46,101 nucleotides of DNA from a virus (Duplodnaviria; Caudoviricetes): positions 1 to 46,101 of IMG/VR virus record IMGVR_UViG_3300017754_001947. One strand, 5' to 3'. Below are positions 7,889 to 43,100 of this stretch, one piece after another. Position 1 is the stretch's first letter; each line of letters starts with the position of its first letter. A program made the position numbers and the translations under genes. The notes below the pieces were generated by a model. The model ran no database searches. It saw nothing but the letters and a program-made list of their open reading frames with translations, and had not been told where the DNA came from.

Positions 7889-7892
7889 AACA

Positions 7893-8591
7893 ATGACTAT
7901 TTTAGAAAATACTAAATCAGATTCTTGTATTTATTGTATAATGAATCAAGAAAATGGACTTTTTTATATAGGTCAAACTAGATGTTATTCTAAAAGATCT
8001 AAAGAACATTTAAATGATTTTAAAGCAGGAAGGCATAAAAATATATGGATGCAAAGAGTATTTCAAAAAAATAATTTACTTATAATGTTTCCTGTTGAAA
8101 ACTGTAGTCCTGAAAAATTAAATGAAAGAGAAGTATTTTGGATTGATTATCATCAATGTTCAAATAGAAGAAATGGTTATAATCTTTCAAAGGGAGGAGA
8201 TTTTTCATTACTCTTATTAACTGAGGATGCACAAAAAAGAAAAGCTGATGCACGAAGAGGTAAGCCAGGAACATTAAAAGGAAAAAAGCAGTCTAAAGAA
8301 TGGATAGAAGCAAGAATGTCTAAATTAAGGGGTCAAAAAAGAAATTACTCAGAAGAACATTTAACTGCAATAAGAGAATCTAGAAAAAAAACAAAAGGTA
8401 TTCGTAAAAAAGGGAAACTTGTAAAGGTTATAGATTTAATAACAAAAGAAGAAAAAATATTTCAAAGTAAACGAGAAGTCGAAGATTTTTTAGGAATTGC
8501 TCGAGATAAACTTATTCATAAATTTTATAAAGGAAAACCAAGAAAAATTCTTAAAGAAACCAAAGTTGGCAAATATTTAATAATCAGATAA
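7893..8591 (+). mobile_element. Free-standing GIY-YIG (Seg-like) homing endonuclease with NUMOD-like basic C-terminal DNA-binding region
   Basis: CIYCIMNQENGLFYIGQT (GIY-YIG), R..EH, LNEREVFWI and GYNL motifs, plus Lys/Arg-rich repeats. More A-rich than its neighbours and abuts intact genes on both sides. Confidence 0.9.
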
Positions 8592-15620: not shown

Positions 15621-15717
15621 AAAAGGAGGAAGTCCTAGAAAATCTAGTAAAAAATTAGTAAATTATAGTCAAAGCCCTAACTTTGTTAAAACCAGTTGGT
15701 TAGATAAATACAAATAG
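15615..15717 (+). other. Candidate +1 programmed frameshift (CCC-TAA) and 32-aa C-terminal extension
   Basis: The ORF ends CCC TAA (15615-15620). The +1 frame reads KKGGSPRKSSKKLVNYSQSPNFVKTSWLDKYK* and stops at 15717, one base before the next ATG at 15719. Confidence 0.65.
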
Positions 15718-15718
15718 A

Positions 15719-18397: not shown

Positions 18398-18403
18398 TAT
18401 AAC

Positions 18404-20827: not shown

Positions 20828-20833
20828 TAAACT

Positions 20834-20856
20834 TTATAGGTTTACTAAACTTATAA
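20834..20856. promoter_or_regulatory. Imperfect palindrome (operator or promoter-like) upstream of the ejection/RNAP genes
   Basis: TTATAGGTTTA-C-TAAACTTATAA: 11-bp arms, one mismatch, 1-nt spacer, in the 56-nt gap before 20884. Confidence 0.5.
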
Positions 20857-20883
20857 TATTTTTGAGTAAATTTATACACTGAT

Positions 20884-23842: not shown

Positions 23843-26800
23843 ATGGCACTAGAAAGTTCACTTGATAAAAATATTAGTTTTCCTGATTTTGGTCCTTCTG
23901 GAAGTCCTACTCAAGCATTTGATAGAGAGTTTTCACAAGTAAATACTGGTATACAGTATAACAATCCAATACCTATTGTTAGTCCTGCTTTACCACCAAC
24001 TAGTCCTGACTCAGTTGATATTAACCAGAACTTGGTTGGTAATGAACAAACTGGCCCAGTTCCAGGAGCAAAACAAACTTCAGGGGGAACTACAGATTTT
24101 GTTAAAGCTGTAAATAGTTACATGGGTCAAGCAGACCAGTGGGCTAAAGATAAATACAAGTATGGTAGAACATACTCTTATGGCGCTGGCTATAAGAATA
24201 TGAACTTTGAAAGATACTATGAGCATCCCGAATTTAAAAAGCTAGGATTCTCTCCTTATAGAGATAATGAACAACTCTATAATGAGAATAGTTCTTGGAT
24301 GGATGACTTTAGAAGAATGGGTACACAGTGGGGTAAGCTTTTTACAACAGGTGTAGGATCCAGTTTATTTCTTGTAGATGATGATGAAGCAGAAGAAGCT
24401 ATGCAAAAAGGCATGGCTATTGGCTCTTCATCTAAAGAAGGAGCTGGAGCTTGGATTACAAACTTTGGTCTTAACTCAGCATATAGTTTAGGTATTATGA
24501 CTGAGATTGTTGTAGAAGATCTAGCTTTAGCTGGTCTTGAGATTGCAACACTAGGTGGATCTACTCCTTTAACTATTGCAGAATTAGGTAGACAAAGCCT
24601 GCTAATAGGTAAAGGTATAAAAGCAATAGAGACTACTAAGAATGTAATTAAAGGCTTTAAAGATATAAACAAAGTTAGAGAAGCTTTTAGTGCTGTTAAA
24701 CTAGGTGATGTTGCTTTAAAAACAGGAAAGTTTTTAAATCCTTTTACAAGAACTGCAGATTTTACATATAATTTAGCAAGAGGTACTGGAAGCTATAAAG
24801 AATTAAACAACTTAGCTAAAACAGCTAAAGGTTTTGGTGAATTCTATAAAGATGTTCGTGAGATAAGTTTAGCAACAGAAGAGGGTGGAATGGAAGCAGC
24901 TACTGCATCCAATACATATCATCAAAAGCTTATTGATGAGTACTATGCTAAATATGGTAAAATGCCTGAAGGACAAGATGCTCAAGATATTTATGAGAAA
25001 TCTAAGTCAGTAAGAGCATCCACTCAAATGTGGAACAATATTATAATCTTTTACAGTAATAGACTTGTTTTAGGTAAACTATTAGATGGTTTTCCTAGTG
25101 TGTCTTTATTAGCTAAAGGAATTGAAGAAACCTCTACTAAATATTTAACTAAAACAGCTGTTGGTGAAGTACTTGAAAAAGGAGCTTTAGAAGCAGGTGA
25201 AAAATCTTTAGGAAGAAAGACTGCAGAGTTCTTAGTTAAATCACCTTATGTTCCTTGGTCTAAAAGTTATATTGTAGGTAACTTATCTGAAGCACTTCAA
25301 GAAAATGCTCAGGAAGCTATTCAAAAAGGAGTTATTGCTTACCATGATAAAGTAGATAAAGATCCTAGTCAAGCAGGTTTTTGGCAAGGTGTCAATCATA
25401 TGGGAGATGCAATAGGTACTCAATTTTCAAGTGAAGGTATGAGTACTTTCTTCTCTGGTTTCTTAATGGGTAGTGTTGCGGGTGGTGCACAAGGTCTTGT
25501 AATGGGAAGCTATCAAAAAGCAAGATCTTTAAATAGCACATACAAAGCGGAGCTTGATGCAGCTAAACAAAATGCTGAAGAAAGAGAGACTAATATTATT
25601 AATGCTGTAAATGACATAGCAAAGAATGCTATGAACATTGGCCAGAAAAATGCTGATAATGCAGCCATCTCAAGGAACTATGCTGCAGAAATGGATAATG
25701 CTGTAAATGAGGGGAATGAGCATAAATTCAATGAAGCAAAAGATAATATGGCTGGTGAAAAGTTTTATACTCTTGCCTCAACAGGTAAAATGAAACTTAT
25801 CACAGAGCACTTTAATGATATGCTTAAAGCAACTGATGAAGAGTTAGCTCAAGCTTATGGTAAAAAAGTTGAAGATGCTCCTAAAGTAAGACAAAGACTT
25901 CAAACACTTATAGATAGAGCAAACAATTTTCAGAAGATATATGATAAAGCTACAAAAGAGTTTGCTAACCCTAATGATCCTGGTGTAGCTGATCCTAAAA
26001 GAAATCCTGAGCTTTATCAAAAAATCAATAGAAAGTATAATGCTTGGAATCAAGCAGTTAAATCTATTGTAATATCTAGTGAAGCAGCTGAGAGAGTAAG
26101 TGGTAGAATGACAAGTATTGCTAATGAATTATCATCAGTATCTCCATGGATAGAAACAAGAAGAGGAGCTACTGTAAGTAATACAGCCGGCACAGATGAA
26201 GCTATGTCTTTAATTGATAATTATCAAAGAAAAGACATGATCAGAACTTTACTTCTTGAAGCTGAAGCACTAGAACAAGGAACTGAAGAGCAAAAAGAAG
26301 AAGCTGCTGAAAAAAGACAAATTGCAGAAACTCTTAAAGAGTGGGGGATTGTTACTAATAACTTTAATATAGAGCTTCTTTCAGAAAAGAGAACTCTTAC
26401 TCCAGAACAAAAAGAAGCAAAAGCTAATCTTATGAAGATTAGAGAAGGCGCTGTTGTTAAAACAGAAGGTTCTGAAGAAGAATACAAAGTAGAAAGAGTT
26501 ATTGGTAATCAGATTGTAACAAAAAATAAAGAAGGAAAGACTACTTATATCTCAAGAGATAAAGCTCAAATAGTAAGAGAGTCTACTCTTGAAAAGAAAA
26601 GTACTGCCGAAAATACTCTTGATGAAGCTATTGAAATGATGTATGATACTTATACTAAGTATTTACAATTGGTAGCTAAACAAAAGGGTGGAACTATTAT
26701 AGACAAAGAAGGAGATGCTGCTTTTAAAAAAATAAGAGACTTCTTTATGCTTGAGAGAGATTCTCAAGATCTTACAAGAGCTATTAATCTTTTAAGTAAT

Positions 26801-29743
26801 CCTCTGTATTTTAATAGATTGTATCAAGCAGAACAAGCTGTACAAGAAAAAAGAGAGAAAGACAGAGATGAAAGAATAAGAGAAGCATTTGTTGCTTATG
26901 AAAAACTTCTTAAAACTAACAGTTTCTTAAATGAATTATATGATCTTGGCCTTTGGATATTTCCTGAAGAAATAGAAGCTTTTAAAAAAGATCCTAGATC
27001 AGTAACTTACTTTGATAAAGTAAAAAAAGAAGTAATAGAACCTACTAGTGAAACTTATAAGAAGATCCAAGTTATTTTAGATAAGTACTTCCCTGTAGAG
27101 AAGAAAGAAGGAGAAGCTAAGGTTGAAGAAAAAGAAACTGAAGTTAAAGTTGAGGAAGAGAAAAAACCAAAAGCTACTCAAAAAGTAACACCTAATATAA
27201 CAATAGAGCAGCTCAATAAAATTCCTGAGCTTAAATCTATTCTTATCAAGCTTTACAAAAACCAATATGTAAGAGAAAGCAAAGGTCTTACTGATGAGCA
27301 AATTCTCAATACTCCTAAGTTTAAGAACTTTATCAAAACATCCGGTACAGCTCTAGATCAAATAGCTAAATACAATCTGTCTTCAGAACCTGTAATAGCT
27401 AAAGAAGAAGAAGTTGAAGTTGTTATACCAGATGAGTTAACAGATGATAATTGGAAAGAACTCATTGATAAAGCTGTATCTGAAAGAGAACTTGATAAGA
27501 TCATGCTGCAGATAGACAATGTTAATCAGATGAATGGTGGTTTAATGTTGGCTATAAGTAAGAAAAGAGATTCTTTTAAAGAAGCTTCTGAAGCAGCTCC
27601 CACAGCTCCTGCTACTACAGATGCTAAAGCTGATATAGAAAAAAATCTTGGAATAAAATTATCTGATTATATTGGTTTTCCAACGTCTTCATCAGGAGCA
27701 ATGAGTTGGGAAAAAATGTTGAGTGGAATAGATAATGATGGTTATCCTATTTCTGAAAAAGATCAAGTTGTTTTAAAATCAGGCTATGATTTAGGTAACG
27801 GGTATTTTGCTATAGGATACAAACAAAATAGTTCTTCTAATAAAATATCTTTTCATATATTCAAAAAAGGTATAGAGGTTCCTGCAACTAAAACTAGCAT
27901 AACAGCTTCAGATGCGTATGCTGCTCCTTCTAAAGAAACTATAGAAAAAATAAATTCATTAGCATCGCCTAGATTATTTTCTACTGCTGATACAGATGTT
28001 ATTCTTCAAAAAATAGATGTTCTTAAATCTAAATACGATGCAGAACTAGTTGCTTCAGAAGGTAAAGCTCAAGTAGATCCTAGAAAAGAAATAGAAGAAA
28101 AGATTAAAGGTCTTGAGGAACAGATAAAAACTACATATCGTTTCATGGGTAATACAGATAGCCATGCCGCTACTGTTCAAGCTGAAAAAGATATTAAGAT
28201 GTATGAGGAAGATCTTAAAAAACTAAAAAATGAACTAGCATCTTTAGAACCTAAACCTGAAGTAAAACCAGAAGAAGTAGAAGCTATATCAGAAAGAACT
28301 TATTACCAGGGAGCAGAAACTCTTGATGAAAGAGAATTTAACTACTTCACTACTGATAAAGAAGAAGCTAAAGACTACGGTGAAAATGTAAGAGAAGTTA
28401 GAGTAGAGCCTACTAATCCACTTGTTTACTATGAAAACCGAGAAGTAGTTGATGAGTTTAATAACCAAAATACAGGCCAAATTGCTGAAGAGTTTAAAGG
28501 TAAATTTATATATGTAAGTCCTGGAGCAGGTAAAACAACTCTTGCTGAGACAAATGAAAACATTGTTGATGCTGATCAGCTTATTATTGAAGAAATAAAT
28601 AAAGCTTATCCTGACTTTACAAGAAAAGCAGATGAAACTGATCAAGAGTTTATAAACAGATTTACTAAAAATTATAGAACAAAGAGAGTAGCAATTAATA
28701 ATGCTGTAAGGACTAGAGTAGAAGCTTTGCTTATAGAAGGTAAAACTGTATTAACTGGTACACTTGCTTTTGCAAATGATGTTGATTTAGCTTTTACATT
28801 AAAAGCTTCTGATCCTAAACTATTAAAAAGATTCTCTTCTACTCAAGAAGCATCAGACTTTTTAGCTAGAGAGCAGGAAACTTTTGATAATGCACAAAAA
28901 GAAATCAATATTCTTGATAAACCGGTAGAAAAGAAATTTACTACAGCTGCAAGGTTTGATTTACTTGACAACTCTCCAGAAGGATTAGCTACTCAAAATG
29001 CATTCTTTAAGTTTGCTAAGAGCAAAGGTTATGATGCCATTGACTTTAGCAGCAAAGGTTCAGAGGAGAGTAAATATCTTGTATCTCTTAATAATGATAT
29101 AATAAAACCTGCAACAGAAAAGAAAGCAGAAGTAAAAGTTGAAGAAAAAGTTGAAGCTAAACCTACTGGAAAACAGAGAGTTATAGTAACTCCTGACCTA
29201 TTAGCTAAAGTAGATGATATAGCCTCAATAGATGAGCTCAATGAATTCTTTGGCGATCTTTATGAAAATCAAGAAGCTAAAGAAAAGTATGGCTTATTAA
29301 ATGCACCTAATGCAGTAATAAAGAAACTTCATAGTGAATTTAAAAAGAGATTCTATAAGAAGAAAGACTTTAGAACAGCATTAAAAGGAACTGTAGGTTT
29401 ACTTACTACAGGTCAAAAATTTGTAGTTACTTCTAAGACAAAAGGTGGTTTAAAATACCGTATATTAGATGCTTCTAATCTCCCTGTTGGAGAAGAACAA
29501 ACTATGAGTAAAGAGGATTTTAAAAATAATGTTGATATCATATATAAAGATGGTATGGAACTGGAAGAAGGTTTATTTGCACCAGTAGCAACAGAAAATA
29601 AAATAACTTCTAATGAGAATATTGAAGGTACTTCAGTTGTTCTAACAAAAGAAAAGATTGACGAGACTTCAAATAAAATTGAAAATCTCAGCAAGGAAGA
29701 AGTAATTAAAAAATTAAAAGATAATTTAGGTTGTAAGAAATGA
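23843..29743 (+). CDS. Giant ejection / polyvalent protein, 1966 aa, with hydrophobic membrane-active segments and C-terminal accessory domains (ART-like, P-loop)
   Basis: Gly/Ala hydrophobic segments (LALAGLEIATLGG; FFSGFLMGSVAGGAQGLVMG), EALQE...QE motif, coiled coils, Walker-A-like SPGAGKTT at 28517-28540, and a single Cys near the C-terminus. Confidence 0.7.
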   Translation: MALESSLDKNISFPDFGPSGSPTQAFDREFSQVNTGIQYNNPIPIVSPALPPTSPDSVDINQNLVGNEQTGPVPGAKQTSGGTTDFVKAVNSYMGQADQWAKDKYKYGRTYSYGAGYKNMNFERYYEHPEFKKLGFSPYRDNEQLYNENSSWMDDFRRMGTQWGKLFTTGVGSSLFLVDDDEAEEAMQKGMAIGSSSKEGAGAWITNFGLNSAYSLGIMTEIVVEDLALAGLEIATLGGSTPLTIAELGRQSLLIGKGIKAIETTKNVIKGFKDINKVREAFSAVKLGDVALKTGKFLNPFTRTADFTYNLARGTGSYKELNNLAKTAKGFGEFYKDVREISLATEEGGMEAATASNTYHQKLIDEYYAKYGKMPEGQDAQDIYEKSKSVRASTQMWNNIIIFYSNRLVLGKLLDGFPSVSLLAKGIEETSTKYLTKTAVGEVLEKGALEAGEKSLGRKTAEFLVKSPYVPWSKSYIVGNLSEALQENAQEAIQKGVIAYHDKVDKDPSQAGFWQGVNHMGDAIGTQFSSEGMSTFFSGFLMGSVAGGAQGLVMGSYQKARSLNSTYKAELDAAKQNAEERETNIINAVNDIAKNAMNIGQKNADNAAISRNYAAEMDNAVNEGNEHKFNEAKDNMAGEKFYTLASTGKMKLITEHFNDMLKATDEELAQAYGKKVEDAPKVRQRLQTLIDRANNFQKIYDKATKEFANPNDPGVADPKRNPELYQKINRKYNAWNQAVKSIVISSEAAERVSGRMTSIANELSSVSPWIETRRGATVSNTAGTDEAMSLIDNYQRKDMIRTLLLEAEALEQGTEEQKEEAAEKRQIAETLKEWGIVTNNFNIELLSEKRTLTPEQKEAKANLMKIREGAVVKTEGSEEEYKVERVIGNQIVTKNKEGKTTYISRDKAQIVRESTLEKKSTAENTLDEAIEMMYDTYTKYLQLVAKQKGGTIIDKEGDAAFKKIRDFFMLERDSQDLTRAINLLSNPLYFNRLYQAEQAVQEKREKDRDERIREAFVAYEKLLKTNSFLNELYDLGLWIFPEEIEAFKKDPRSVTYFDKVKKEVIEPTSETYKKIQVILDKYFPVEKKEGEAKVEEKETEVKVEEEKKPKATQKVTPNITIEQLNKIPELKSILIKLYKNQYVRESKGLTDEQILNTPKFKNFIKTSGTALDQIAKYNLSSEPVIAKEEEVEVVIPDELTDDNWKELIDKAVSERELDKIMLQIDNVNQMNGGLMLAISKKRDSFKEASEAAPTAPATTDAKADIEKNLGIKLSDYIGFPTSSSGAMSWEKMLSGIDNDGYPISEKDQVVLKSGYDLGNGYFAIGYKQNSSSNKISFHIFKKGIEVPATKTSITASDAYAAPSKETIEKINSLASPRLFSTADTDVILQKIDVLKSKYDAELVASEGKAQVDPRKEIEEKIKGLEEQIKTTYRFMGNTDSHAATVQAEKDIKMYEEDLKKLKNELASLEPKPEVKPEEVEAISERTYYQGAETLDEREFNYFTTDKEEAKDYGENVREVRVEPTNPLVYYENREVVDEFNNQNTGQIAEEFKGKFIYVSPGAGKTTLAETNENIVDADQLIIEEINKAYPDFTRKADETDQEFINRFTKNYRTKRVAINNAVRTRVEALLIEGKTVLTGTLAFANDVDLAFTLKASDPKLLKRFSSTQEASDFLAREQETFDNAQKEINILDKPVEKKFTTAARFDLLDNSPEGLATQNAFFKFAKSKGYDAIDFSSKGSEESKYLVSLNNDIIKPATEKKAEVKVEEKVEAKPTGKQRVIVTPDLLAKVDDIASIDELNEFFGDLYENQEAKEKYGLLNAPNAVIKKLHSEFKKRFYKKKDFRTALKGTVGLLTTGQKFVVTSKTKGGLKYRILDASNLPVGEEQTMSKEDFKNNVDIIYKDGMELEEGLFAPVATENKITSNENIEGTSVVLTKEKIDETSNKIENLSKEEVIKKLKDNLGCKK

Positions 29744-32700
29744 TCTGTACATTAACTCCATCACAACTTGAAGATCTCTTAACACTAGTGTTATGGGATC
29801 TTTCTGATATTGTTAAAAAGGGAAACAAGTTTGACTATAAGACATACATGAAAGAAATGTATGATCTTATAAAAGCAAACTCACCTTATGAAAATGCAGA
29901 AGATACAGAAGCTTTAGCTCTTGACTATGCTAGACAAGCAGCTATTATGATTCATGAAGTTGCTGCTATTGGTAAAGTAAAAAAAGAAGGTAAACAAGTA
30001 AGACTTTCTGTTGAACTTAGTGAGGTTGGCTTTAGTAGTGATGCTCTTATTAAAGAAATAAAAAAATTTGAAGATCCTAATACAGGACTAGAAGCTGTAG
30101 CAGCTATTGTTAATCCAGTAACTGGTATAGCACAAGATCTTAAAAATGCTCAGATTGTTCAAGATTTAATAAGTCAAGAAGAAGAACTTAATAAACCAGA
30201 AGAAGTTAAAGAAGCAGTTATAAAAAAAGCTGAACCTTCTGTTAGAACTACTGATAAAGAAACTGTTAGTCGTGATTCAACAAGAAGAAATCCTCTTCTT
30301 ACTGTGTATTATAAAATACAGAGAGCTATTGTAAACTTTGTTAAAGAAGCTGTAAATACCAATAGCAAATCTGTAGAATATCCTGGTATAGGAAAAATCT
30401 ACATTAAGCTTGTTGCAGGAAGAAACATAGATGCTGAAAATAGAAGAGCAGCAGACAGTCAAGTTAGTGACTTTGATAAAAGAGTTTATGCTGTTGTTGT
30501 AGATGAAGAAGGTAATTTTCTTTATGCTAATGAGGATGGTACTCTTGCTAAAGAAGGTAAGAAGTTTGCATACTACTCAGCAAATGAAGTAGGTTCTCAA
30601 ATAGCTAACTATCTAAATGAGAACACTAGTAACTTTGTAAAAGCTAATATTATAGGTGGGTCACTTGGACAACTTGCTAATATTACTGCTTCAGATAGAA
30701 AGCTTAAAGACATTAAAGGAGTTACTTCCTCAACTACTGTATACCCTAGAGATGCTAGTAGCAAATTTCCTTATTATCAAATAGAAGGTTATCCCGGTAT
30801 ACTTACTATATCAGCACCTAAATTTGGAGATTTTAACCAAAGAGGTAAACTTGAAAAGATTGTTGATTTACTTATCAACAAAGTATATGAAAGAAATACA
30901 GAACTTTCATTTGATGATAAGCTAAAGAAAATGGAGTTTATGTTTTCTTTAGAGGGAGCAAGTAGAAAAAAAATAAGAGATCTTATTAAATCTAAAACAG
31001 AAAAAGTTACAGATCAAAATAAGAATCAAATTAGAACAGAGTTGATGGGTATAATTGGTGAGATGTATTTCAACATTGATTACCCATTATTCAATGCTAA
31101 TATATACAGAGACTTTGATGTTAATACTACTGAGACTGTAGATGGCAGAGTAATGTTCCAAGAAGGTCCTCAGAAGCGCTACAAAGAAGACTATCTTTTT
31201 GAAAACTTTACAAGCAGAGGTAAATTTGATTCTGAAGGTAATCCTGCTGTATTTGATTCATACTTAGAGTTTCAACCTCAAGAAGCTGAAGTAGATAAGT
31301 ATACTAAAGTAGCTGAAGAGGTAGCAAAAGCTGAGATTAAAGCTGCTCCTGAAGTCAATACTCAAGAACAAACTACAACAGCTCCAGGTATACAGGAAAC
31401 AATATCACTTGATGATATTGCTAATATAGCTATTAAAGACATAGATTCTTTATCTAAACTTATAGGTGTTAAATCACTAAATGGAAAAGAATCTGTAGTT
31501 AAAATAGCAAATGGTCTTATATGGTTCCTTGGTGGTAAAGAAGCTCTTAAGCATCCAGCAATGAAGAAGTTCATGTCAGCTCTTTCAAGAACTGAGGTTG
31601 AACAGATTAAAGCTTTAGCTGTACAAAATCCTGAAGCTTCTCCATTAGCTACTAAATATAAAGTACCTGTTGAGGTAGTATTTAAGGCTGTTAATAGTGG
31701 TCCAAGAGTAGCAGCAGCTACCTGGTCAGTTAATGGTATTGTACTTAATCAATACATGAGAGAAGAAGGAGAAAGCATTGATGAAGCAATCAGTGGTGAC
31801 TTCTCAGATATCTATCATGAAGCATGGCACGGGTTTACTCAAACCTGGTTAACAGAAGATCAAAGAAAGAATATGTATGCTGAAGCCAGCAAACAAAAAG
31901 GTTCTTTTACTGATTACAATGGTAACAAGGTAACATTTGCAAATGCTAAACCTCTTCAGTTAGAAGAGTATTTGGCAGAAGAGTTCAGAAAGTTTATGCT
32001 TTCTGGAGGTACTTATACAAGGCCAGAAACTCCTGTTCAAAACTCTATATTTGATTGGTTATTCAATCTTATCAAAAAGCTTTTTGGAAAAGCTAAAACT
32101 ACAGATAGTGAAATGCCTATTATTCAAGAGCTTTATCAAAAGCTTAGAGTAGGTGATATGTCCGGGTTTAACTTTGATGTAAACAACAGAGATAAAACAA
32201 TAGGTCAACTAAATAAAGCTGTAGAGAAAATATCTTCTAATAAAGAAGATATTGATCTGAATCATCAGGATTCAATGCAGCTTATCAATACTATTGATTC
32301 TATTATTTCTAACATAGTAGACTTCACTAATAAGAAAAGTGGCACAAATCGCTTTACTGTAGGCTTCTTTAAGAAAGAAGAAAACATGAAGGTTGCTTAC
32401 AAATATGCTAAGCAGCAATTAGAAACTACTATAAAGAAGCACCTGGAAGATAAGATTGCTAAGTCAGAAGGAGCTCAAAAGACTCACTTTGAAAAGCAGC
32501 TTTCTCTTGTTAATTGGGCTCTTAGAAACTTTGGAGATACTGAGAACCTTAAGAATAACAGAGATGGTAAAGGTCTTATAGCTTACCACCAAATGAAGTC
32601 TAAGTTTATATCCTATGAAGATAGAAAGAACTTCTTTGCTGATATAAATGAAGAGGCTTTGTCTACTAAAGGTAGAGAAGGTTATGGTGATAGAGCAGGT

Positions 32701-35700
32701 AATGAGTTCTCACACCAAGAACTTGGTGATCCAGATGTGCATGCTCTTTTAAGAAGTATCTATGCATTTAAAGGTAAGGATAAGGTGCTAAATGATTTTG
32801 GTACACAAGATCTTGTTCCATATGACCTTATGTGGAATAAGCTTGCTAAAATTCTTACCGGTACCATTACTATAGATAAAATGGAAGCTGCTCTTAAAGA
32901 AGCAGCTAAAACAGATGGTACTATTGAGCATTTACTTGAAAAACTTGGGGATAAGAATACTTCTCAATATGATGAAGAGTATAGCTTATGGACTAAGTTT
33001 TGGCAAACTTTTAATGGCTCATTAATTCCTTTAGTTCAGGTAAATGTTGAAGAAAACAAAGTTGGTGACACTGATGTTACAAAATATGTAATTAAGGTAG
33101 GTAGATCATCTGCTCCATATGCTCAGGTAGCTAATAGATGGAGTAATACATTTGAATATTTGACTAGTGATGAGGTTGATACTTTTGACAAAGACCCTCT
33201 TACAAATCAAAGCTATATTGATCTTAATAAACTATTTAAGAAATTTCCTAATGGAGTTACTAGAGAACAAAGAATGGAATTCTTTAGATCTTTAGGTATT
33301 TACTTTTCAAGTGATTCTAGAATTGCAGAAGCAATAGAAAAGAATAATATAGGTGGTGCATCTGATATATGGTCTAATCTTTCAAGTCTTTATTCTAAAC
33401 ATGGTGTTCAAAGAATAAACTCTTTAGAAGAAGTATTTGCGGCCTATAAAGAAAAACCTTCTGTAGATAAAAACGGAGTAAAAGTATTGGCTCCAGCTCT
33501 TGTAAGTTTGGAAACTTACTATAAAAAGCTCCAAGAACTTGAGGCAAGAAACTCAGACTATACTACAAACTTCTTATCTAGTAATGCTGAAGGAAACTCT
33601 CAATATGAGTATAGCTTAAACAATACTCTTAGTATTCTTACTGATGCTCTTAATACAGCAGATTCTTTTGAAGCTCTTATCAGTATGCCTCATATGGCAC
33701 AATTTAAAGAAGAATTAAATGCATGGAGTAAATCTTCTGCTACTTTAAATTCTCTCTTTGATATGAGTAATCCTGTAAAGAAAGAAAGAAGAAAAGATAA
33801 AGATGGCAAACCTATTAAGATAAATCTTAGTAACCTAAGTGGTGTTCAGCTTATTAGAGAAGATGGAACTGTAGGTATTGCTTCAGCTAGTGCTGACGTA
33901 TTTACTAAGTTTATCCAGGATTTACACCTTATGACAATTGCTGGTAAACCTGAGTTACCAAGACATGCTGATAAAACAAGTTCATTCTCTACCTATGTAG
34001 ATAGAATATACCCTGTTGGAGTAGGTGCTTCTAGAGGAAGTCTATACATTGATATTGAAGATCTTGCAAAAGATCAAGGTAAATCTGGTAAGAACAGAGC
34101 TTTTAGTATTGTAAAGAACTATATTAATTCTGAGCTTGATAGAATTAGAAGATTTAAAGCTTTACAAGAAAGAGTAGACAAAGGAGAAAATATTCAGTTT
34201 GATTTTAAATATCTTAAGAAAGGTCAAGACTTTGTAATATTTGAAGATGTACTGAGTAATAAAACAAAAGAACTTCTGCTTAAAGCTGATTCTTCCCTTA
34301 CTCTAGATGAAATATTAAATCTAAATGAAGGGGATATTTATGATAAACTTAGAGGGGACTTTGATAAATACTTTGATGTTCAAGTACAAAAAGCTAATGA
34401 GTATTTTGATAAGGTTGATAAGTTTACCGCAGAGAACCTTCTTATAACAATAGAAAGACAATCTAAAGTAAATAGACAGCAAGCAAAAGTAGCTGCTATT
34501 AATGCTTTTGTATATAACTCATGGATTCATAATGTTGAAGCTATGATTGTTATCTACGGAGATATTGCACAATACAAAGATGCTGATGACTTTACTAAGC
34601 GTATAGCAGGTTCCGGATCAACTGGTAAGATCATGAGATCTGATGCAGCTGGTATTCAGTATGTCAACAATAAGAAAAATAAGTATGCTATGAAAAGATT
34701 AGGAACTACTATGGATCCTAATCAGGCATCAGATCTTAATAACATTGGACTAGATGGTACTCTTAATTCTGCAATTCTAGAAGATAATAAAATAGGAACT
34801 CAATACATTGATCAGTTAAGAGAAGCTATTACAGAAGATGTTGTTAAAAGAAATAAGGACAAGAAGCTTTCTAAGAAAAAGATAAGTGAGATTGTTGAGA
34901 AAGAGCTTGGAGATTATGTAAACAGCATGAATGAAGGTGATGCTCAAGGCTGGATAAGCTTTGATGCATACAGAGCTTTATCAAATCTTGAAGGAAAGTG
35001 GAGACCTGAACATGAGAAGATGTATAATGATATCATAGAAGGTAAAGTAAAACCTGACTATGAAGCTATTAAATACTTCTTCCCTGTTAGAAAGTTTCAG
35101 TACTGGGGATCAGTAAAAAATGAACATGCTGCAGCTAATGCTTTCCATAAGTTCTCTTTGATGCCTCTTATTCCTTCTTTAACAGAAGATACTAGTATAG
35201 ATGATCTTCATTTAAAGATGATGAATGAAGGTATTCATTATGCTCTTTTTGAGTCAGGTTCTAAGGTATCTACTATTACTACTAATGGTGTTAAAGACAA
35301 GTTCTATACTAATAAAGAAGAAAGAACTATTGTAAACATTAATGATAAAGCGTTTACAAAGAACACAGTTCACTTACAATTCCTTAAAGATCAATTAGAT
35401 ATAGCTGATGAGTATAAAGGTAATGTTACATTTCCTACTCAGATGCGTAAGCTTATTGAATCAGGTCTAATGGAAGGTGGAGTACCTGTTGATTTTAAAC
35501 CAAACCTTAGTCTTGAGGCAAGAGTAAAGCTTTGGTCTACAGTAGTAGATAAGGAAGCAGAATCACCTATATATAAGCTTGTAATGAACTATGAGAGCAG
35601 TATTTCTGCTCTTACAAAAAAGCTTACGGATGATCTTATCAAAGAAGCATCTATAGAGTTTGATTCTGATGGCAATATCATCTTCAATGATAATCTTGCT

Positions 35701-38700
35701 AATTTCATGGTAAATGCTTTAAGATCTGAAGATCTTGCAGAGCATGAAATAGACTTCCTTAAAAAGGCACCTGGTGGCAAGAGTCTTGCACATGATCTTT
35801 CTTTATCTCTTTCTGCAGAAAAAATTGAAAAAGCTCTTAACTCTATAATTGTTAAGAGACTTGTAAGACAGAAGTTTAATGGTGAAGGTCTGATTCAGGT
35901 ATCTGGTGCAGGTTTTGAAAAGAAAGCTCCTAAGTTTAGAGTAGCTACTGATGAAGAAAGACTTAAGTACAAAGGTACTAATGACTTGCCTTTCTATAGA
36001 AGATCTGGTGGTAAAGATGGTAAAACCAGCGCTGCTAAGATCAAGATTGCAATGCAGGGAGATTTTGTAAAACTACTTAATCTTAAACACCCTGATGGTA
36101 ATAAAATAGAAACTATAGAAAGACTTAATCAGCTTATTACTGATGATGCTTGGTTAGATGAAGGTAATAATAGAAGAATGATCACAATAACTGGAGCTCG
36201 TATTCCAGTACAAGGTCTTAACTCTATGGAATTCATGGAAGTATATGAGTTCCTTGATCCTACAGCAGGCAATATTATTATTCTTCCATCTGAAATTGTA
36301 GCTAAGTCAGGATCTGACTTTGATATTGATAAGCTCACAATGATGATGCCTAACATTGAGTCTAATTATAGCTTTAAAAAATGGACTACAAAAGAAGGCA
36401 GAGAGCTACTAAAAACTCTTGCTACTGACAATCCGGATATTGCAGATAAACTTACTCCGGATAATGTAGGTATTATTCTTGATATCATTAAAAATAAAGA
36501 AGAACTCTTTAAGCTTGATGAATCAGACAATAAAGTCCTTGATTTACTTAAAGCAAATTCAGAATTTAATGTAGGACTTGAATCTGGCAATACAGTTGGT
36601 GGATTACAAAATAAGGTAATTCAAAGTATGATAGATATTTTGGAAATACCACAAAACTATCTTTCTTTAGTTAAACCTAACTCTACTTATATTGCCAAAG
36701 ATCTAGCAGATAATCTTGCAGCTAAGGTTCTTGATTATAACAATAACTATAGAGTTCATGATGAAGTGACTGGTAAACCTGCAGGTACTAGAGTATTTGA
36801 AATAGGCTTTAACCTTTATAAACATTCTTCACACAATATTGGTAAAGAAACACTTGGTCTAGGCGCTGTTGATAATACTTATAACTCTGTATTTAACAGA
36901 ATAGGTTTCTATCTTAATCCTTCATATACTGCTGGATTTGGAACAGAAAAATTTGAAAAGAGAGCTACAATCCTTCTTCCTCATAATAAACTAAATAATG
37001 GTATATCCTTGTCTCACATTATGGATGTGAACAAGGAGAATTATGTTGGGGATATTATATCACAGCTTATTAATGGTTGGGTAGACGTAGCTAAAGATGC
37101 TTGGATCTTTAATATTCAAGGTAATAAAGAAGCTTCTCCTACTTTGCTTTTCCTTATACAGGCCGGTGTACCTTTTAAACAAGCTGTACACTTAATGTCA
37201 CAACCTATTATTAGAGAGTACATTCAGGAACAAAAAAGAGCAAAGAGTATTCTTGCTAATGCTTTAGGAGAAGACATTAAAAATCCAAACTTTTTCAGAG
37301 GTCATACAAGAGATAAGTTTATGAATAGATACTTCTTACAAAGAAAAGGAGTAGTCTATGAAGAAGATTTTGATTATAACAATTTAAACAACTCTGAGAA
37401 ACAAAAGTTTATATATGATAGAACTCTTGAGTATACAAATAACCCAGAGTTTTTAAAGTTTGTATCTGATCCTGAAGCTATTGAAGGTAACATAACAAGT
37501 AAGACAATTTCTGATAATGATCTTGCATCTCTTCTTCATTTCTTTGAACTTGAGGATATGGCAAAAACAGTTAGAGATGTTAAACTTAGAACTAACTTTG
37601 ATACAACTAGATCATCTAGCGCATATGATGCAGAAGATAAAATAGCTCTTGCAGAAGCTTTAGAAACTAATGATCTTATTCCAGGTGATCTTCTTGATAA
37701 GGTTTTAAATGATACTCCTATTGGTTCATTCTATGTTCAACCATTTCAAGTAAAAGCTTGGAAAGGATTCTTTGAGCTTAGAAATAATGATAAGGTAAAT
37801 GCCTTCTTAAAAGAGTACATTAAGAAAAATAGAACAAGTATATATAATACTTATGGTGATGCAAGTGAATTTATTAAGGCATTTAAGAACAATCTTCCAA
37901 GCTTTGTTTTCCAAAATGAACTTAAAGCATTTGATATATCTAAGCCAAGTAGCTTTGATGGACTTATAGTTAATACAAGAGCTGGTTATGCTGTACTAAA
38001 AACAGCTATAAATCTTGAAACCGGTATAGCTGTTAAAAAAGTTGATGGCGAAAATGTAATCTACATTGATAAGGATTCCCTTATTAAAAACTATAAAGAC
38101 TTTGAAGAAGGTAAAGGAAACTTTAAACCTTCTTCTAAAGAAGGAAAGATATCTTCTGGACCTGCTTATGTAAATCCTATGGCATTTAATAAGGTTCCTA
38201 GAGATGAATATTTCAGATTTGTAGTTGCAAGAGAAGTATTAAGAGCTACTTATTCTAAAGAAGCTATTGAGCAGAGAGAAGATTATAAAGAACTTCTTAG
38301 TTCTAATATGAAGAATCAGTTATATACTCTTCAGGATGAGACTGCTGAAGCTCACAAAGCAAGAATGGAAAATCTTACTTATGAAGAAATTATAAGAGAT
38401 ACGGCTCTGAATAACACCTATAACTTATGGAAGCTATTCAAAAGCGATAAAACTGTAGCTGATGAGTTCTTTGATATAATCAAGAAACATCCATCTTTGT
38501 TAGATGATTACGCTATAGTTCAAAACTTTAAAAAGAGTGTAAGTAAAGACAAGAAAATTAAAAACTTGGTATTTACTGATACAGCTCTTACAGCTGACAA
38601 GCTTAATATCTTTAATGAGAACCTTTTAGAACTCTCTAATTCATCTTCTATAAAACTTGATATTAATGAAGAAGAAAAAACTAGAGTTGCTCAATTCTTT

Positions 38701-40125
38701 AAGAAACTTAGCACATATGCTTTCTTACAGTCTGGACTTAATACAGGTAGTGCATTCTCTATTATTAGAGCGGTGCCTCAACAAGAGTATCTTAATAAGA
38801 TGATTCCTGCAGCTGGATGGTTTACAAAAGAACTTGAAAAAAGTAGTCCAGAACAAGTTGATGCTATGCTCACAACATTTGTTCAAAAGATGAAGACAAA
38901 TAGAGCAAGTAAAACAAGGAATAGGTTTAGTGATTATCAGGTATTTAAGTATAAGTCTATACGAAGCGTAAATAAACAACAGACTATAGTAGACACTAAA
39001 GAAGACAATTCTGGAAATATTATCTATCAGACTAAACTTAAAGATAAAGAAGGTCCTGAAGGTAAATACAAAACAGCTTATGGTGTAGAAGAGGCAGCAA
39101 ACCTTATGAATACTATGGATAATGTAATGTTTGTTGCTGAGGTACCTCTAGAAACTCCTGCTAATGAAAGAGATCAAAATCCTTTATATATAGCACAAAA
39201 TACTAGAGGTATGAATAACTTTATACCTGTTGTTACTAGAAATACTATAAGTACAGATGGAGTATTTACTGATCAACTTGCTGATAAGTCAGATGTATCA
39301 AGTAAAGATCTTCCTAAACCTACAGTTAAAAAGGTTGGATTTGATATAAAAGAGATCTCACCTAATACAAAAGATCCTAAGAAAGCTGCTGCAGCTACTG
39401 ATATTATTGAGTTTGGTAGAAAAGATCCTAAAACTGGAAGAGTATCTAGCTCTCAGAAATATGGAGAAGCTGCTGTAAATCAAGGTATTCCAAGAAATTC
39501 TGGTGTATATGATTCTGGTACAGTGGCTATGGTAAGTGTTGCAGGAAACAATGTATCTACTACACAAGACATTGATAATACAGTAAATCAAATTGTCAAA
39601 GTTCTAAATGCCGGTGGTTCTGTTATCATGGATAATAAGAAAAACCGTGAGTCAAACTGGAATAAATCTGGAGAAGGTGTTGTATTTGAAGCTGTAATGA
39701 ATAAACTTGGAGTTAAGAATCTTACCAATATCTCCAAGGATCCTGACTATGTTCAAATCAAATACAAGACAAACATACCTACTGCAGTTAATGGTTTAGT
39801 AGAACCTAATACTATTGTAAAAGAGAAGATAGATAAGTTTATTGAGCACGCAAAAGAAGTAAAAGCATCAGGTATGCAACTTGGATTCCCTGTTACTGGT
39901 TTGGCTCAATATATGAGAAGAGGAGACTCCTTTGCAAGACAAACTTTCTTATATTTGTCTAAGAGACTTTTAGAAGTTGGATATGTAAATCCAGGGCTTT
40001 TAGAGGTCCAGTCAGATCCTGATAATCAGGTAAGTGAATCTGGTATTGAGATGGTTGAAAAAGTTCAACAGGTATCAGTCAGAGAAGCTAGTGATAAATT
40101 ATTAGAATGTTTTGGTAGAAAATGA
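29740..40125 (+). CDS. Virion-packaged single-chain DNA-dependent RNA polymerase (crAss-like, phi14:2 gp66 type) fused to a zincin-like domain, 3461 aa
   Basis: Catalytic GSDFDIDK (DFDID at 36316-36330) preceded by RIPVQG (36199), with DAQGW, KFSLMPL and INGWVDVAKD motifs. HEAWH at 31816-31830 has downstream EEYLAE. ATGA overlaps at both ends. Confidence 0.9.
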   Translation: MICTLTPSQLEDLLTLVLWDLSDIVKKGNKFDYKTYMKEMYDLIKANSPYENAEDTEALALDYARQAAIMIHEVAAIGKVKKEGKQVRLSVELSEVGFSSDALIKEIKKFEDPNTGLEAVAAIVNPVTGIAQDLKNAQIVQDLISQEEELNKPEEVKEAVIKKAEPSVRTTDKETVSRDSTRRNPLLTVYYKIQRAIVNFVKEAVNTNSKSVEYPGIGKIYIKLVAGRNIDAENRRAADSQVSDFDKRVYAVVVDEEGNFLYANEDGTLAKEGKKFAYYSANEVGSQIANYLNENTSNFVKANIIGGSLGQLANITASDRKLKDIKGVTSSTTVYPRDASSKFPYYQIEGYPGILTISAPKFGDFNQRGKLEKIVDLLINKVYERNTELSFDDKLKKMEFMFSLEGASRKKIRDLIKSKTEKVTDQNKNQIRTELMGIIGEMYFNIDYPLFNANIYRDFDVNTTETVDGRVMFQEGPQKRYKEDYLFENFTSRGKFDSEGNPAVFDSYLEFQPQEAEVDKYTKVAEEVAKAEIKAAPEVNTQEQTTTAPGIQETISLDDIANIAIKDIDSLSKLIGVKSLNGKESVVKIANGLIWFLGGKEALKHPAMKKFMSALSRTEVEQIKALAVQNPEASPLATKYKVPVEVVFKAVNSGPRVAAATWSVNGIVLNQYMREEGESIDEAISGDFSDIYHEAWHGFTQTWLTEDQRKNMYAEASKQKGSFTDYNGNKVTFANAKPLQLEEYLAEEFRKFMLSGGTYTRPETPVQNSIFDWLFNLIKKLFGKAKTTDSEMPIIQELYQKLRVGDMSGFNFDVNNRDKTIGQLNKAVEKISSNKEDIDLNHQDSMQLINTIDSIISNIVDFTNKKSGTNRFTVGFFKKEENMKVAYKYAKQQLETTIKKHLEDKIAKSEGAQKTHFEKQLSLVNWALRNFGDTENLKNNRDGKGLIAYHQMKSKFISYEDRKNFFADINEEALSTKGREGYGDRAGNEFSHQELGDPDVHALLRSIYAFKGKDKVLNDFGTQDLVPYDLMWNKLAKILTGTITIDKMEAALKEAAKTDGTIEHLLEKLGDKNTSQYDEEYSLWTKFWQTFNGSLIPLVQVNVEENKVGDTDVTKYVIKVGRSSAPYAQVANRWSNTFEYLTSDEVDTFDKDPLTNQSYIDLNKLFKKFPNGVTREQRMEFFRSLGIYFSSDSRIAEAIEKNNIGGASDIWSNLSSLYSKHGVQRINSLEEVFAAYKEKPSVDKNGVKVLAPALVSLETYYKKLQELEARNSDYTTNFLSSNAEGNSQYEYSLNNTLSILTDALNTADSFEALISMPHMAQFKEELNAWSKSSATLNSLFDMSNPVKKERRKDKDGKPIKINLSNLSGVQLIREDGTVGIASASADVFTKFIQDLHLMTIAGKPELPRHADKTSSFSTYVDRIYPVGVGASRGSLYIDIEDLAKDQGKSGKNRAFSIVKNYINSELDRIRRFKALQERVDKGENIQFDFKYLKKGQDFVIFEDVLSNKTKELLLKADSSLTLDEILNLNEGDIYDKLRGDFDKYFDVQVQKANEYFDKVDKFTAENLLITIERQSKVNRQQAKVAAINAFVYNSWIHNVEAMIVIYGDIAQYKDADDFTKRIAGSGSTGKIMRSDAAGIQYVNNKKNKYAMKRLGTTMDPNQASDLNNIGLDGTLNSAILEDNKIGTQYIDQLREAITEDVVKRNKDKKLSKKKISEIVEKELGDYVNSMNEGDAQGWISFDAYRALSNLEGKWRPEHEKMYNDIIEGKVKPDYEAIKYFFPVRKFQYWGSVKNEHAAANAFHKFSLMPLIPSLTEDTSIDDLHLKMMNEGIHYALFESGSKVSTITTNGVKDKFYTNKEERTIVNINDKAFTKNTVHLQFLKDQLDIADEYKGNVTFPTQMRKLIESGLMEGGVPVDFKPNLSLEARVKLWSTVVDKEAESPIYKLVMNYESSISALTKKLTDDLIKEASIEFDSDGNIIFNDNLANFMVNALRSEDLAEHEIDFLKKAPGGKSLAHDLSLSLSAEKIEKALNSIIVKRLVRQKFNGEGLIQVSGAGFEKKAPKFRVATDEERLKYKGTNDLPFYRRSGGKDGKTSAAKIKIAMQGDFVKLLNLKHPDGNKIETIERLNQLITDDAWLDEGNNRRMITITGARIPVQGLNSMEFMEVYEFLDPTAGNIIILPSEIVAKSGSDFDIDKLTMMMPNIESNYSFKKWTTKEGRELLKTLATDNPDIADKLTPDNVGIILDIIKNKEELFKLDESDNKVLDLLKANSEFNVGLESGNTVGGLQNKVIQSMIDILEIPQNYLSLVKPNSTYIAKDLADNLAAKVLDYNNNYRVHDEVTGKPAGTRVFEIGFNLYKHSSHNIGKETLGLGAVDNTYNSVFNRIGFYLNPSYTAGFGTEKFEKRATILLPHNKLNNGISLSHIMDVNKENYVGDIISQLINGWVDVAKDAWIFNIQGNKEASPTLLFLIQAGVPFKQAVHLMSQPIIREYIQEQKRAKSILANALGEDIKNPNFFRGHTRDKFMNRYFLQRKGVVYEEDFDYNNLNNSEKQKFIYDRTLEYTNNPEFLKFVSDPEAIEGNITSKTISDNDLASLLHFFELEDMAKTVRDVKLRTNFDTTRSSSAYDAEDKIALAEALETNDLIPGDLLDKVLNDTPIGSFYVQPFQVKAWKGFFELRNNDKVNAFLKEYIKKNRTSIYNTYGDASEFIKAFKNNLPSFVFQNELKAFDISKPSSFDGLIVNTRAGYAVLKTAINLETGIAVKKVDGENVIYIDKDSLIKNYKDFEEGKGNFKPSSKEGKISSGPAYVNPMAFNKVPRDEYFRFVVAREVLRATYSKEAIEQREDYKELLSSNMKNQLYTLQDETAEAHKARMENLTYEEIIRDTALNNTYNLWKLFKSDKTVADEFFDIIKKHPSLLDDYAIVQNFKKSVSKDKKIKNLVFTDTALTADKLNIFNENLLELSNSSSIKLDINEEEKTRVAQFFKKLSTYAFLQSGLNTGSAFSIIRAVPQQEYLNKMIPAAGWFTKELEKSSPEQVDAMLTTFVQKMKTNRASKTRNRFSDYQVFKYKSIRSVNKQQTIVDTKEDNSGNIIYQTKLKDKEGPEGKYKTAYGVEEAANLMNTMDNVMFVAEVPLETPANERDQNPLYIAQNTRGMNNFIPVVTRNTISTDGVFTDQLADKSDVSSKDLPKPTVKKVGFDIKEISPNTKDPKKAAAATDIIEFGRKDPKTGRVSSSQKYGEAAVNQGIPRNSGVYDSGTVAMVSVAGNNVSTTQDIDNTVNQIVKVLNAGGSVIMDNKKNRESNWNKSGEGVVFEAVMNKLGVKNLTNISKDPDYVQIKYKTNIPTAVNGLVEPNTIVKEKIDKFIEHAKEVKASGMQLGFPVTGLAQYMRRGDSFARQTFLYLSKRLLEVGYVNPGLLEVQSDPDNQVSESGIEMVEKVQQVSVREASDKLLECFGRK

Positions 40126-43100
40126 AAGCTTGTCCTAACTTAAATGACCCATTTGTAAGAGAAAGATGGGATGCAATTAGTAGTGATCCAGAACTTGGGC
40201 AGTTATATGCTATGCAAGAATACCTGGAAGCACTTGGTCAAGATAGACCAATGGGTACTGTTGAAGAAGTAAAGGAAAAAGTAGATAAGAGATTTGAAGT
40301 AAAATCTCCAGTTGAAGTAGCTGAAAGAATTAGAAGAGAGACTGAAACTATCAAAGAAAAGTCTAATGATCCTGTATTTACAGATCCTGAAACAGGTATA
40401 GGACTTGCTATTCTTAGTAATCCAATAGATGGTAAGACTCTTAATATCGAATCTACTGACAATACTAGAGCTAATGAAGCTCTAAGAATGTTGTCCCAAA
40501 GTTTAGGTATTACCTATCATTTTATAAGTCCACAGCAGGCTATTGAACTTACTTCAAAGTCTAAAAATCCATGGACTACTGCTAAAGGAAAAGCTTTCTT
40601 CTATGAAGGTAATGTGTACTTTGTAGGTACAGAAGTTACAACATCAATGGCTTTTCATGAATTTTCTCATGCTGTTGTCAAAGCATTAGCTGTTGATCCA
40701 GAAACCAGATCTCTATTTAATAAGCTTGTAGCTGAGGCTCTTGCTGCTGATCCTAATCTTCTTACAGAAGCTGTTTCAGAATATAGAGATCTTGAGCAAG
40801 CTATTGAATCTGAGGAAGATCCTGCAGAAAAGAAAATTCTGATTGATAAATATCAAAGCATTCTTGCAGAAGAAGTTCTTGTTAAAGCTCTTACTAAAGC
40901 AGCAAAAGATAAATTTGATGCTACTAAAACAGAAACAAAGTTTGGCAAATTCATGAAAAACCTCATGTTTGCTATTAAACAGTTTCTTAGAAAAGTATTT
41001 GGTAAGAAGATTAACATCTCTAAGCTTGATCCTACAACTAGTCTTAATGATCTTGCTAAGATTTTAGCAGAAGGTGGCAACTTTAAAGTCAATACAACTA
41101 TGGTATCTGACTCTGATGTAGTTGCATATCTTGAAGATAGAGACTCTCTACTTAATGATCTTAAGCTTCTTAATGAAAGAGATATTACAGCGCTATCTTC
41201 AGAAGCATATGATCTTAGTACTAAGTACATCAAACTTCTTATAAGAAATAAGAACTATAAGGCCCTTGCTGATCTTCTATCTGATGAATATGGTAGAGGA
41301 GAACTTAAAGAGATTCAGTCTAACTTGCGTGAATATGCAGGAGAGCTTACAGAAAAAGCTGAACAACTTATCCTTGATATGGATAGGATGAAAGACAATG
41401 TGCAAGCTCTTACTAATACTGTGTTGCGTCTTGATAAAATTATGACAAGGATTCAAGACTACATGAAAACATTAGAAAAGGATCCTAATAGTAAAGAAAA
41501 TCTTCAGAAGGTATTTTATTATAAGCACTTTATTGATCACTGGTCTAACTATGTAGACAATGCCTTGGATACAATGAACAAGGCAAATGCTCCTGCAGGT
41601 TCTCCTATGGTTACTGTCTTAAATAGAATTAAGACTAATGTAAACAGAATAGAAGAATCTATAATGAATATCAGAAAAGAAGGTGCTGGACAAGTACTTT
41701 TTGATGAGATATCTGATATTGTAGAAGCTGCAGATGAACAATTTAAAGAAACAATTAAGCTTCTTAAAAGTAAAGGTGCTTCACAATCTAGCATAGACTC
41801 TAAATATAAATTTTATCATGGTCTTACAGAAGATGAATACAATCACTTTGTAAGATTAAATTCTCTTAAAGAATCTGGTATGTCTCTTACATCCCAAGAT
41901 TCTCGAGATCTAGAAGCACTAAAAAGACAAAAATTTACTGAAGGTGCTCAGATTACAAAAGAGAAAATGGATATGCTAATATCCGGTAATCTTAAAGATG
42001 CTCATTATACGAATAGCTTCTTTGAAGGTTACATGTATAATACAGATCCTGTAATAGCAAGTTTTGCTTCTTTCTTAAAAAAGAACATGACAGAAGTTGA
42101 TCTAAAAGTAATGAACAACTATGACAAGTTTCTTGATAAGATAGTACCTCTTCTAAAAAAGAATAAAATCAAGTTTACAAACATTGGTGAACTGGGTGAA
42201 AAACTAGGATTTGTTGATATTGTAGCTGGTAAAGATGAGAAAGGTAATCTTACAAAAAAAGAAAGATGGAGTCTTTTAGGTAAATATAAAGACTATAGAT
42301 ATGTTGAATCAGAGTTTGATGATGAAATTACTAAGCTACAAGCTGAATATTACCATTCTCAAACTAAAGAAAATAAAGAGAAACTTTCTGCAGCTATATC
42401 TAAAAAGAGAGAACACTTTAAAAAGTGGTGGAATCAAGAGTATGTACAAGAAGTATATGATCTAGATAAAGTATTTAACCAAGGTCCAGATGATAAGATA
42501 GGTCAAGAAGCTTATAGAAGAAAACAAAAATTCTTTGAAGACCTTAATAACCTAACAGCAGAAAGAGATGACCTTGATCTTCTTGAAGTAAATGACCGGA
42601 TGAATGAACTCTGGAGAGAGTATAGACTTATGCATTCTCTAAGAGATATTAAAGGTAACATGAAGGTTGGTGAGGAACTGGAAATTGCACAAAGATTAAA
42701 TGAATACAAAAGGCAATCTAGTGAATACTATGAATATGTACCTAGAAGAGGAGTATTTGAAAATACTCTTAAAAAAATAGAAGAACAGATTAAAGATAAT
42801 CTTAAAGAAGAAGATTTTCAACCTGGTCCAGCTTTTGATGCAGAATTTGCAAGAAGAAGACAAAAGTGGATTGATGCAAATACAAGAACTGTAATCAAAG
42901 ATTCTTTCTATGAAAGACGTGCATTCTTATATCAAGAAATAGAAAGACTAAATAAGTCTTTAAGAATCAAAATAGAAGAGAAGATAAAACTTCTAAATGA
43001 CCAGATTCCAAATCTAAAAGGTAAGCAACTCATTTTTGCTAACAAAAATGTTAAAGATCTCCAAGATAGCATTGATGCTATGGAGGAGATAAAGAAAGCT

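Follow-up and report, generated by a model that had tools for sequence, protein, structure and literature searches.

The closest described counterpart of the protein chain considered here comes from the cyanophage A4 (Anabaena phage A-4L, Saffermanviridae). According to the accessible text of the cryogenic electron microscopy report, the C-terminal helix of gp27 inserts into a cleft of gp26 (PDB 9K3A) and is fixed there by a disulfide between Cys1715 and Cys5 (PMC12002296). We describe a corresponding pattern in positions 1 to 46,101 of the IMG/VR virus record IMGVR_UViG_3300017754_001947 (the window). It codes for three adjacent giant proteins, here called A, B and C, of which B is the virion RNA polymerase (vRNAP). 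Their only cysteine (Cys) residues are found at the ends that face a neighbor. The A4 proteins share this facing-end pattern. The genes for these ejection proteins are adjacent, as in the crAss trio, and the sole Cys is located two residues from the end of gp27 (1717 amino acids, aa) and at residue 5 of gp26 (1114 aa). Pf-WMP3 and cyanophage PP keep this A4-type Cys pair. A4 differs, however, in that a single link connects two proteins; it is described as stabilizing, and a chain, fusion or linker logic is not discussed in the accessible part of the report. A match to an RNA polymerase was not found in the A4 genome. The A4 precedent raises the odds for a disulfide in the window trio and, at the same time, lowers its novelty.

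Within Crassvirales, the orthologous trios are gp67-gp66-gp65 of phi14:2 and gp47-gp50-gp49 of crAss001. These proteins are packaged, are thought to be ejected partly unfolded, and have the same terminal Cys. As far as the accessible text of the crAss001 atlas goes, gp47, gp49 and gp50 are contained in the virion, and partial unfolding is argued to be necessary for their passage through the tail (PMC10172136). Disulfides are reported for crAss001 virions in this text, where the mentions are confined to tail and vertex proteins; virion gels were run with reduced and with untreated samples, and the text gives no result on links within the trio. The available text of the phi14:2 gp66 preprint mentions neither "cys" nor "disulfide", and that of a paper on polyvalent proteins (PMC5512222) mentions neither cysteine nor disulfides. 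The vRNAP of Schitoviridae (N4, DEV) resembles the trio in that the polymerase is ejected and has large parts on both its N- and its C-terminal side. For N4-like ejection proteins, Cys suppression across the ejection operon has been described (PMC11445570, accessible text). The N4-type vRNAP is, however, one Cys-free polypeptide with a polymerase of a different class and without a clasp between proteins, while the window has three genes, four Cys and a DFDxD-type polymerase and thus lacks the single-chain organization of N4. How the three crAss proteins relate to the three parts of the N4 vRNAP is left open in the accessible text of a 2026 paper on N4 (PMC13434306).

Proteins A, B and C from the window add up to 7365 residues. 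Upon translation, they contain only four Cys in total (A1964, B3, B3457 and C4), while the N-terminus of A and the C-terminus of C are devoid of Cys (Table 1). This confirms a preceding sequence-only reading of this DNA, which had placed all Cys of the three giants at their facing ends. If four Cys were distributed at random, the computed probability that one lands in each of the four 10-residue segments at the facing ends is ~8e-11. Both junctions (A/B and B/C) are 4-nucleotide ATGA overlaps; that the genes overlap had been read before. From these positions and from the comparative patterns detailed below, we consider it probable, though well short of certain, that A, B and C are joined head to tail by two disulfides, one between A Cys1964 and B Cys3 and the other between B Cys3457 and C Cys4. 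The resulting covalent chain of ~7,400 residues would hold the cargo together on its way through the tail.

Table 1. Features of the window that are relevant to the proposed Cys-linked cargo chain.
Feature	Position	Strand	Length	Remarks
crAss tail ring proteins and muzzle protein	7214..14752	+		PF25702, PF24228, PF25731, above cut-off
Four Cys-poor cargo-type genes	14754..23841	+	288, 892, 807, 985 aa	no terminal Cys, outside the clasp chain
Protein A, first link	23843..29743	+	1966 aa	sole Cys1964; gene order and profile match to crAss001 gp47 / phi14:2 gp67
Cys1964 codon of A (TGT)	29732..29734	+		C-terminal clasp residue
Protein B, virion RNA polymerase (vRNAP)	29740..40125	+	3461 aa	DFDID motif near residue 2193; Cys3 and Cys3457 only
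Helical domain at the start of B (residues 1-125), predicted with high confidence	29740..30114	+		Cys3 codon at 29746
Cys3457 codon of B (TGT)	40108..40110	+		C-terminal clasp residue
Protein C, last link	40122..45938	+	1938 aa	sole Cys4 (codon 40131); ortholog of crAss001 gp49 / phi14:2 gp65

The families of the tail ring and muzzle proteins put the window in Crassvirales, and the three giants are the vRNAP cargo trio of this order (gp47/gp50/gp49 type), A being assigned by profile and position only. B has a GSDFDIDKL motif and matches phi14:2 gp66 (PDB 6VR4, E-value 2e-13). C has a tblastn match to crAss001 gp49, and its predicted fold matches the model of phi14:2 gp65 (E-value 6.5e-15, TM 0.72). 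An iterated profile collects A from the window together with gp47 and gp67, all three of which were contained in the first seed; a direct pairwise BLAST match of A to gp47 or gp67 was not obtained. Pfam and PHROGs searches returned nothing for A, B or C. Fold searches did not reveal a clear solved relative, neither for the head of B (best Z 6.5, which is helical noise) nor for the core of C (no Z of at least 5). A profile search of the PDB with the core of C had no matches, and a search of the ESM Atlas returned only unnamed viral clusters. HExxH motifs occur at B693 and C179, C has one hydrophobic segment (residues 1765-1783), and, in 10 of 63 relatives, C has LysM domains close to its C-terminal core.

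The terminal-Cys rule is order-wide and includes all four gut Crassvirales families. Close relatives are represented by 80 loci that were retrieved with the B core as a query. Both facing Cys are present at each of their 116 non-redundant junctions; this number does not include two A-B junctions affected by a start-call or frameshift problem, both of which show the Cys on inspection. Interior Cys amount to 18 in 415,907 aa. Full-length orthologs of A, available from 40 of the 80 records, have a C-terminal Cys in 40/40 cases and an N-terminal Cys in none (0/40). In alignments of A tails (49), B heads and C heads, Cys is the sole invariant column. For the whole sample, non-redundant ends were scored for a Cys within the first or last 10 residues. 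With this measure, A has an N-terminal Cys in 0/60 and a C-terminal Cys in 57/61 cases, B has 70/76 and 102/104, and C has 132/135 and 0/108. The 116 upstream genes that served as controls have no N-terminal and two C-terminal Cys, and the gene adjoining A has no terminal Cys (0/40). The phi14:2 proteins gp67, gp66 and gp65 have exactly the four terminal Cys, namely gp67 Cys1797, gp66 Cys3 and Cys2179, and gp65 Cys3. The counterparts in crAss001 are gp47 Cys2339, gp50 Cys5 and Cys2404, and gp49 Cys5. Conservation of the terminal Cys in homologs and their enrichment at facing junctions only, which had been named as checks of the proposed linkage, have thus both been observed.

The misses that were inspected (L288 was outside this inspection) are attributable to introns, frameshifts, start calls or added tails. 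Those rejected as true exceptions are due to frameshifts or N runs (L036, L172, L176, L024, IAS virus), to splits by an intron or a frameshift (L088, L198, L251, L257) or to start calls (L077, crAss002). L178 is an A-B fusion by architecture, which had been overlooked by the profile. The annotated start of crAss002 gp33 (L085:12227-24964) is probably 32 codons early; Met33 opens a Met-Ser-Cys head like those of its relatives. In L088, L251, L257 and L317, the break in the polymerase gene falls on the DFDxD motif or immediately behind it, and some of the gaps contain an endonuclease-type gene. These interruptions are probably introns.

Translational coupling had been taken as part of the system, but this was not borne out by the relatives. 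An ATGA overlap is found at only 3 of the 116 junctions, the gaps range from -7 to +303 nucleotides, and A is encoded on the opposite strand in crAss001-type genomes. These data also bear on a trivial explanation, by which the Cys codons simply arise where stop, start and ribosome-binding signals overlap at gene junctions. TGT resembles ATG/TGA contexts, and the Cys codon indeed overlaps the next gene at 6/116 junctions. However, the Cys is kept at junctions with gaps of at least 10 nucleotides (27/116), is encoded by TGT as well as TGC, is kept across inserted genes, and is missing from neighboring coupled genes. It is also kept in crAss001 and relatives, even though gp47 (A) sits on the opposite strand, apart from the start of B, and it is present in 12/12 opposite-strand A tails, which refutes this explanation. 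With the ATGA overlap at 3 and gaps of at least 10 nucleotides at 27 of the 116 junctions, a DNA-level cause is excluded, and we attribute practically no probability to it.

Gene fusions and splits indicate which Cys belong together. In A-B fusions, which occur in Suoliviridae and in several environmental lineages, an N-terminal Cys is found in 0/34 and a C-terminal Cys in 36/37 cases; five such fusions with 3,890-4,902 aa have a single Cys each, which is C-terminal. B-C fusions occur in Intestiviridae and Crevaviridae (six proteins in total). Three belong to the whole sample, with an N-terminal Cys in 2/3 (3/3 when crAss002 gp33 is started at Met33) and a C-terminal Cys in 0/3. The three further ones, one of them from Crevaviridae, have 3/3 and 0/3, respectively. 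Extra linker genes within the chain carry a Cys at each of their termini in 9/9 cases, and the commonest linker type has a tail homologous to that of unsplit B. Four unrelated inserted genes are without terminal Cys. That the Cys is lost upon fusion is concluded from the absence of any Cys, not from an aligned position, and a profile of the B head did not detect a convincing internal copy within the fusions. The architecture changes six times on a tree of 72 polymerase cores, which is a rough count, as this is a FastTree tree with long branches; several independent events thus follow the rule. Because Cys are lost pairwise on fusion and gained pairwise on splitting, the sequences favor a head-to-tail (C-to-N) pairing of chain neighbors. 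Apparent fusions in L169, L170 and L192 under translation table 15 were dismissed as artifacts of the choice of genetic code.

The four Cys could also be paired in other ways. B might be closed upon itself, with A and C bound to each other, or each protein might pair with further copies of itself. B has one Cys at each end, and several copies of each protein are present per virion (the estimate is six in the accessible text of PMC10172136). With such pairings, however, it is left unexplained why A-B fusions keep only the C-terminal Cys of B and B-C fusions only the N-terminal one, so that Cys are lost in pairs. In the cyanophage Lbo-JY46 (Leptolyngbya phage, L089:8741-21647), an A-like and a C-like gene adjoin and have one facing Cys each, while the record lacks a vRNAP match. 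The C-terminal Cys of A and the N-terminal Cys of C are thus kept side by side where no polymerase was detected, which also argues against such pairings, and we consider them very improbable. As to the earlier claim that A, B and C are joined by C-to-N disulfides, it is supported with respect to conservation, enrichment only at junctions, loss on fusion and gain on splitting; the bond itself is what we infer.

The position of gene breaks is variable. An accessory domain is found, depending on the genome, in a linker, in the head of C or in the tail of an A-B fusion (L023:15489-17456, L027, L160, L173, L226), and the sequences look as though the domain order were fixed and the breakpoints shifted along it. 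In L177, the chain consists of A, B, an 871-aa linker and C, and B (L177:6212-12043) extends 287 residues past its Cys tail into cargo-gene-like sequence.

The N-terminal Cys is found at positions 2-7, where 18 different residues occur in front of it; the distance of the C-terminal Cys from the end is 0-9 residues. Near either Cys, the aligned tails and heads do not show a conserved His or any further ligand. The head of B is predicted to be a compact helical domain, with a predicted local distance difference test score (pLDDT) >90 over most of residues 11-120. Cys3 is the only invariant residue of this N-terminal domain, on which the tail of A likely docks. An amphipathic helix preceding each C-terminal Cys had been described for the window and exists as a tendency: the mean helical hydrophobic moment of 209 C-terminal tails is 0.34 versus 0.25 for shuffled ones, with 0.37 and 0.40 in the window. 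It is not universal, however, as some lineages have Pro/Gly-rich C-terminal tails.

Bacterial lipoproteins have a signal peptide and a lipobox ahead of their Cys. This assignment was rejected, as a Cys at positions 2-7 leaves no space for a signal peptide. Inteins and ligation-type splicing use a nucleophile in a fixed register with a conserved His/Asn motif. They were also rejected, given the variable Cys positions, the lack of a conserved His and the lack of a Pfam intein match. More generally, the thiols could be joined by a chemistry other than a disulfide, such as a shared metal ion, a thioester or a ligation that results in a peptide-linked polyprotein. Here, too, both sides of a break would need to have one Cys. 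N-terminal Cys residues are known to serve in ligation chemistry, and the HExxH motifs of B and C are of the metallopeptidase type. Nevertheless, we consider such a chemistry improbable, based on the variable Cys register, the missing ligands and the missing match to an intein family; moreover, the sole solved case of this geometry (A4) was modeled as a disulfide.

Phage assembly occurs in the reducing cytoplasm. A thioredoxin-family protein was not found in any of 16 near-complete relatives, which fits with, but is no proof of, oxidation that does not involve a phage enzyme. For these two reasons, it is unlikely that a disulfide drives packaging, as had been proposed, and non-covalent docking must come first. 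During assembly, each C-terminal tail would dock on the next N-terminal domain, thus bringing the thiols together. The bond would then form by oxidation after lysis, as is assumed for the many disulfides in the tail of crAss001. The lack of other Cys would prevent mispairing in the virion and in the oxidizing periplasm. At infection, the covalent link would outlast unfolding, so that the order and the 1:1:1 ratio would be kept as in the single-chain N4 vRNAP. Finally, thiol reductants of the host cytoplasm would cut the link, and the polymerase could be freed without a protease. This sequence of docking, post-lysis oxidation, link survival, ordered threading and reductive release is what we infer for the disulfide-linked chain.

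As the main alternative, the disulfides may be real but static. They would then stabilize the packed core, tether the polymerase to the ejection channel or act as a membrane tether, with neither a threading order nor a reductive release. The A4 bond is described as further stabilizing a folded layer of the pre-ejectosome (PMC12002296), and N4-type vRNAP was found to associate with membranes. A-B and B-C fusions are common, so that permanent attachment is tolerated, and the single hydrophobic segment of C could anchor the chain. However, a stabilizing bond could sit anywhere on an interface, whereas the Cys described here are at the very ends at every break and move with the break, an arrangement that corresponds to a substitute for the backbone. 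In addition, a triple A-B-C fusion was not found in the sample, and no B frame is open at both ends, though the accessible text of the phi14:2 gp66 preprint states that triple-fusion polyproteins exist and explains fused forms by polyprotein proteolysis. We consider purely static bonds rather unlikely.

Several observations weigh against the disulfide-linked, threaded chain. Homology of A4 gp27/gp26 to the crAss proteins is not established, as profile comparisons gave an E-value of 0.1 or worse and BLAST gave no match; the model of the C core compared with gp26 (9k3a_A) is within noise (Z 3.8, root-mean-square deviation 5.7, 132 aligned residues, rank 23). In L155, cr273_1 and L177, an added tail follows the Cys, which is located 31, 49 and 287 residues before the end, respectively. 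Besides the Cys, clasp modules share no sequence across lineages, and some tails are not helical-looking. Internal Cys are tolerated in gut lineages (0.10% for A-B and 0.15% for B-C fusions), and the cr272_1 fusion even has 39 Cys, so that strict Cys avoidance is not universal. Gut hosts are anaerobes, which makes the oxidant for bond formation uncertain. The crAss001 reconstruction does not resolve the cargo trio, according to its accessible text (PMC10172136), and the literature examined does not report a trio bond for any crAss virion. By sequence patterns, neither a disulfide and a different thiol-pair chemistry nor a thread and a static clasp can be told apart. As a separate observation, internal Cys in Suoliviridae and Intestiviridae (e.g. 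L319, L256, L321) amount to 0.10-0.15%, compared to 0.004% in the clade of the window; this relaxed Cys avoidance is possibly tied to the anaerobic hosts.

Full-text literature searches, with subscription papers and supplements outside their coverage, did not reveal a description of a terminal-Cys chain for Crassvirales. The earlier statement that no description is known thus holds for Crassvirales, but not for podophages generally, given the gp27-gp26 disulfide of A4 in the accessible text of PMC12002296. The terminal Cys are a real, order-wide feature; the clasp has been solved once in another podophage and is here extended to a proposed multi-link chain around a polymerase. How several megadaltons of protein, including a polymerase, are delivered in order through a narrow tail is open for the most abundant gut phages. 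If true, a terminal disulfide chain answers, with one device, both the delivery order and the relation to the single-chain N4 polymerase. It would also explain the family-specific gene fusions and would offer a protease-free release. In practice, the terminal Cys can serve to recognize correct starts and frameshift errors in these giant genes. It is tempting to generalize to a redox-switched virtual polyprotein of 7,000-9,000 residues, in which separate chains are clasped at gene breaks, threaded as one ordered strand and cut by the host cytoplasm. The clasp would be portable, which would let breakpoints move and domains be added, and it may run through Saffermanviridae and polymerase-less crAss relatives. 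For this generalization, we see the arguments as evenly balanced.

Cys avoidance extends beyond the trio to the whole cargo block. The seven genes from 14754 to 45938 code for 6 Cys in 10337 aa (0.058%), compared to 148 Cys in 4444 aa (3.3%) for ten upstream genes of the structural module. The cargo-type gene that precedes A (985 aa, 20884-23841) has an internal pair, Cys128-x5-Cys134. This pair is found at identical positions in 11 of 40 orthologs and is missing in the others. In other upstream cargo genes, Cys also tend toward close pairs (see crAss001 gp45, residues 390 and 398). Scans with a single protein, using either a segment of A or the C domain of Lbo-JY46, retrieved no loci. A gene for a GIY-YIG homing endonuclease (7893-8591) is located between two tail ring genes of the window. 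Some cargo-1-type proteins (L084:946-3519, L085:1532-3205, L095, L118) have a basic tail with a Cys that has no evident partner; examples are p-crAssphage gp47 (Cys856 of 857 residues) and crAss002 gp30 (Cys550 of 557 residues).

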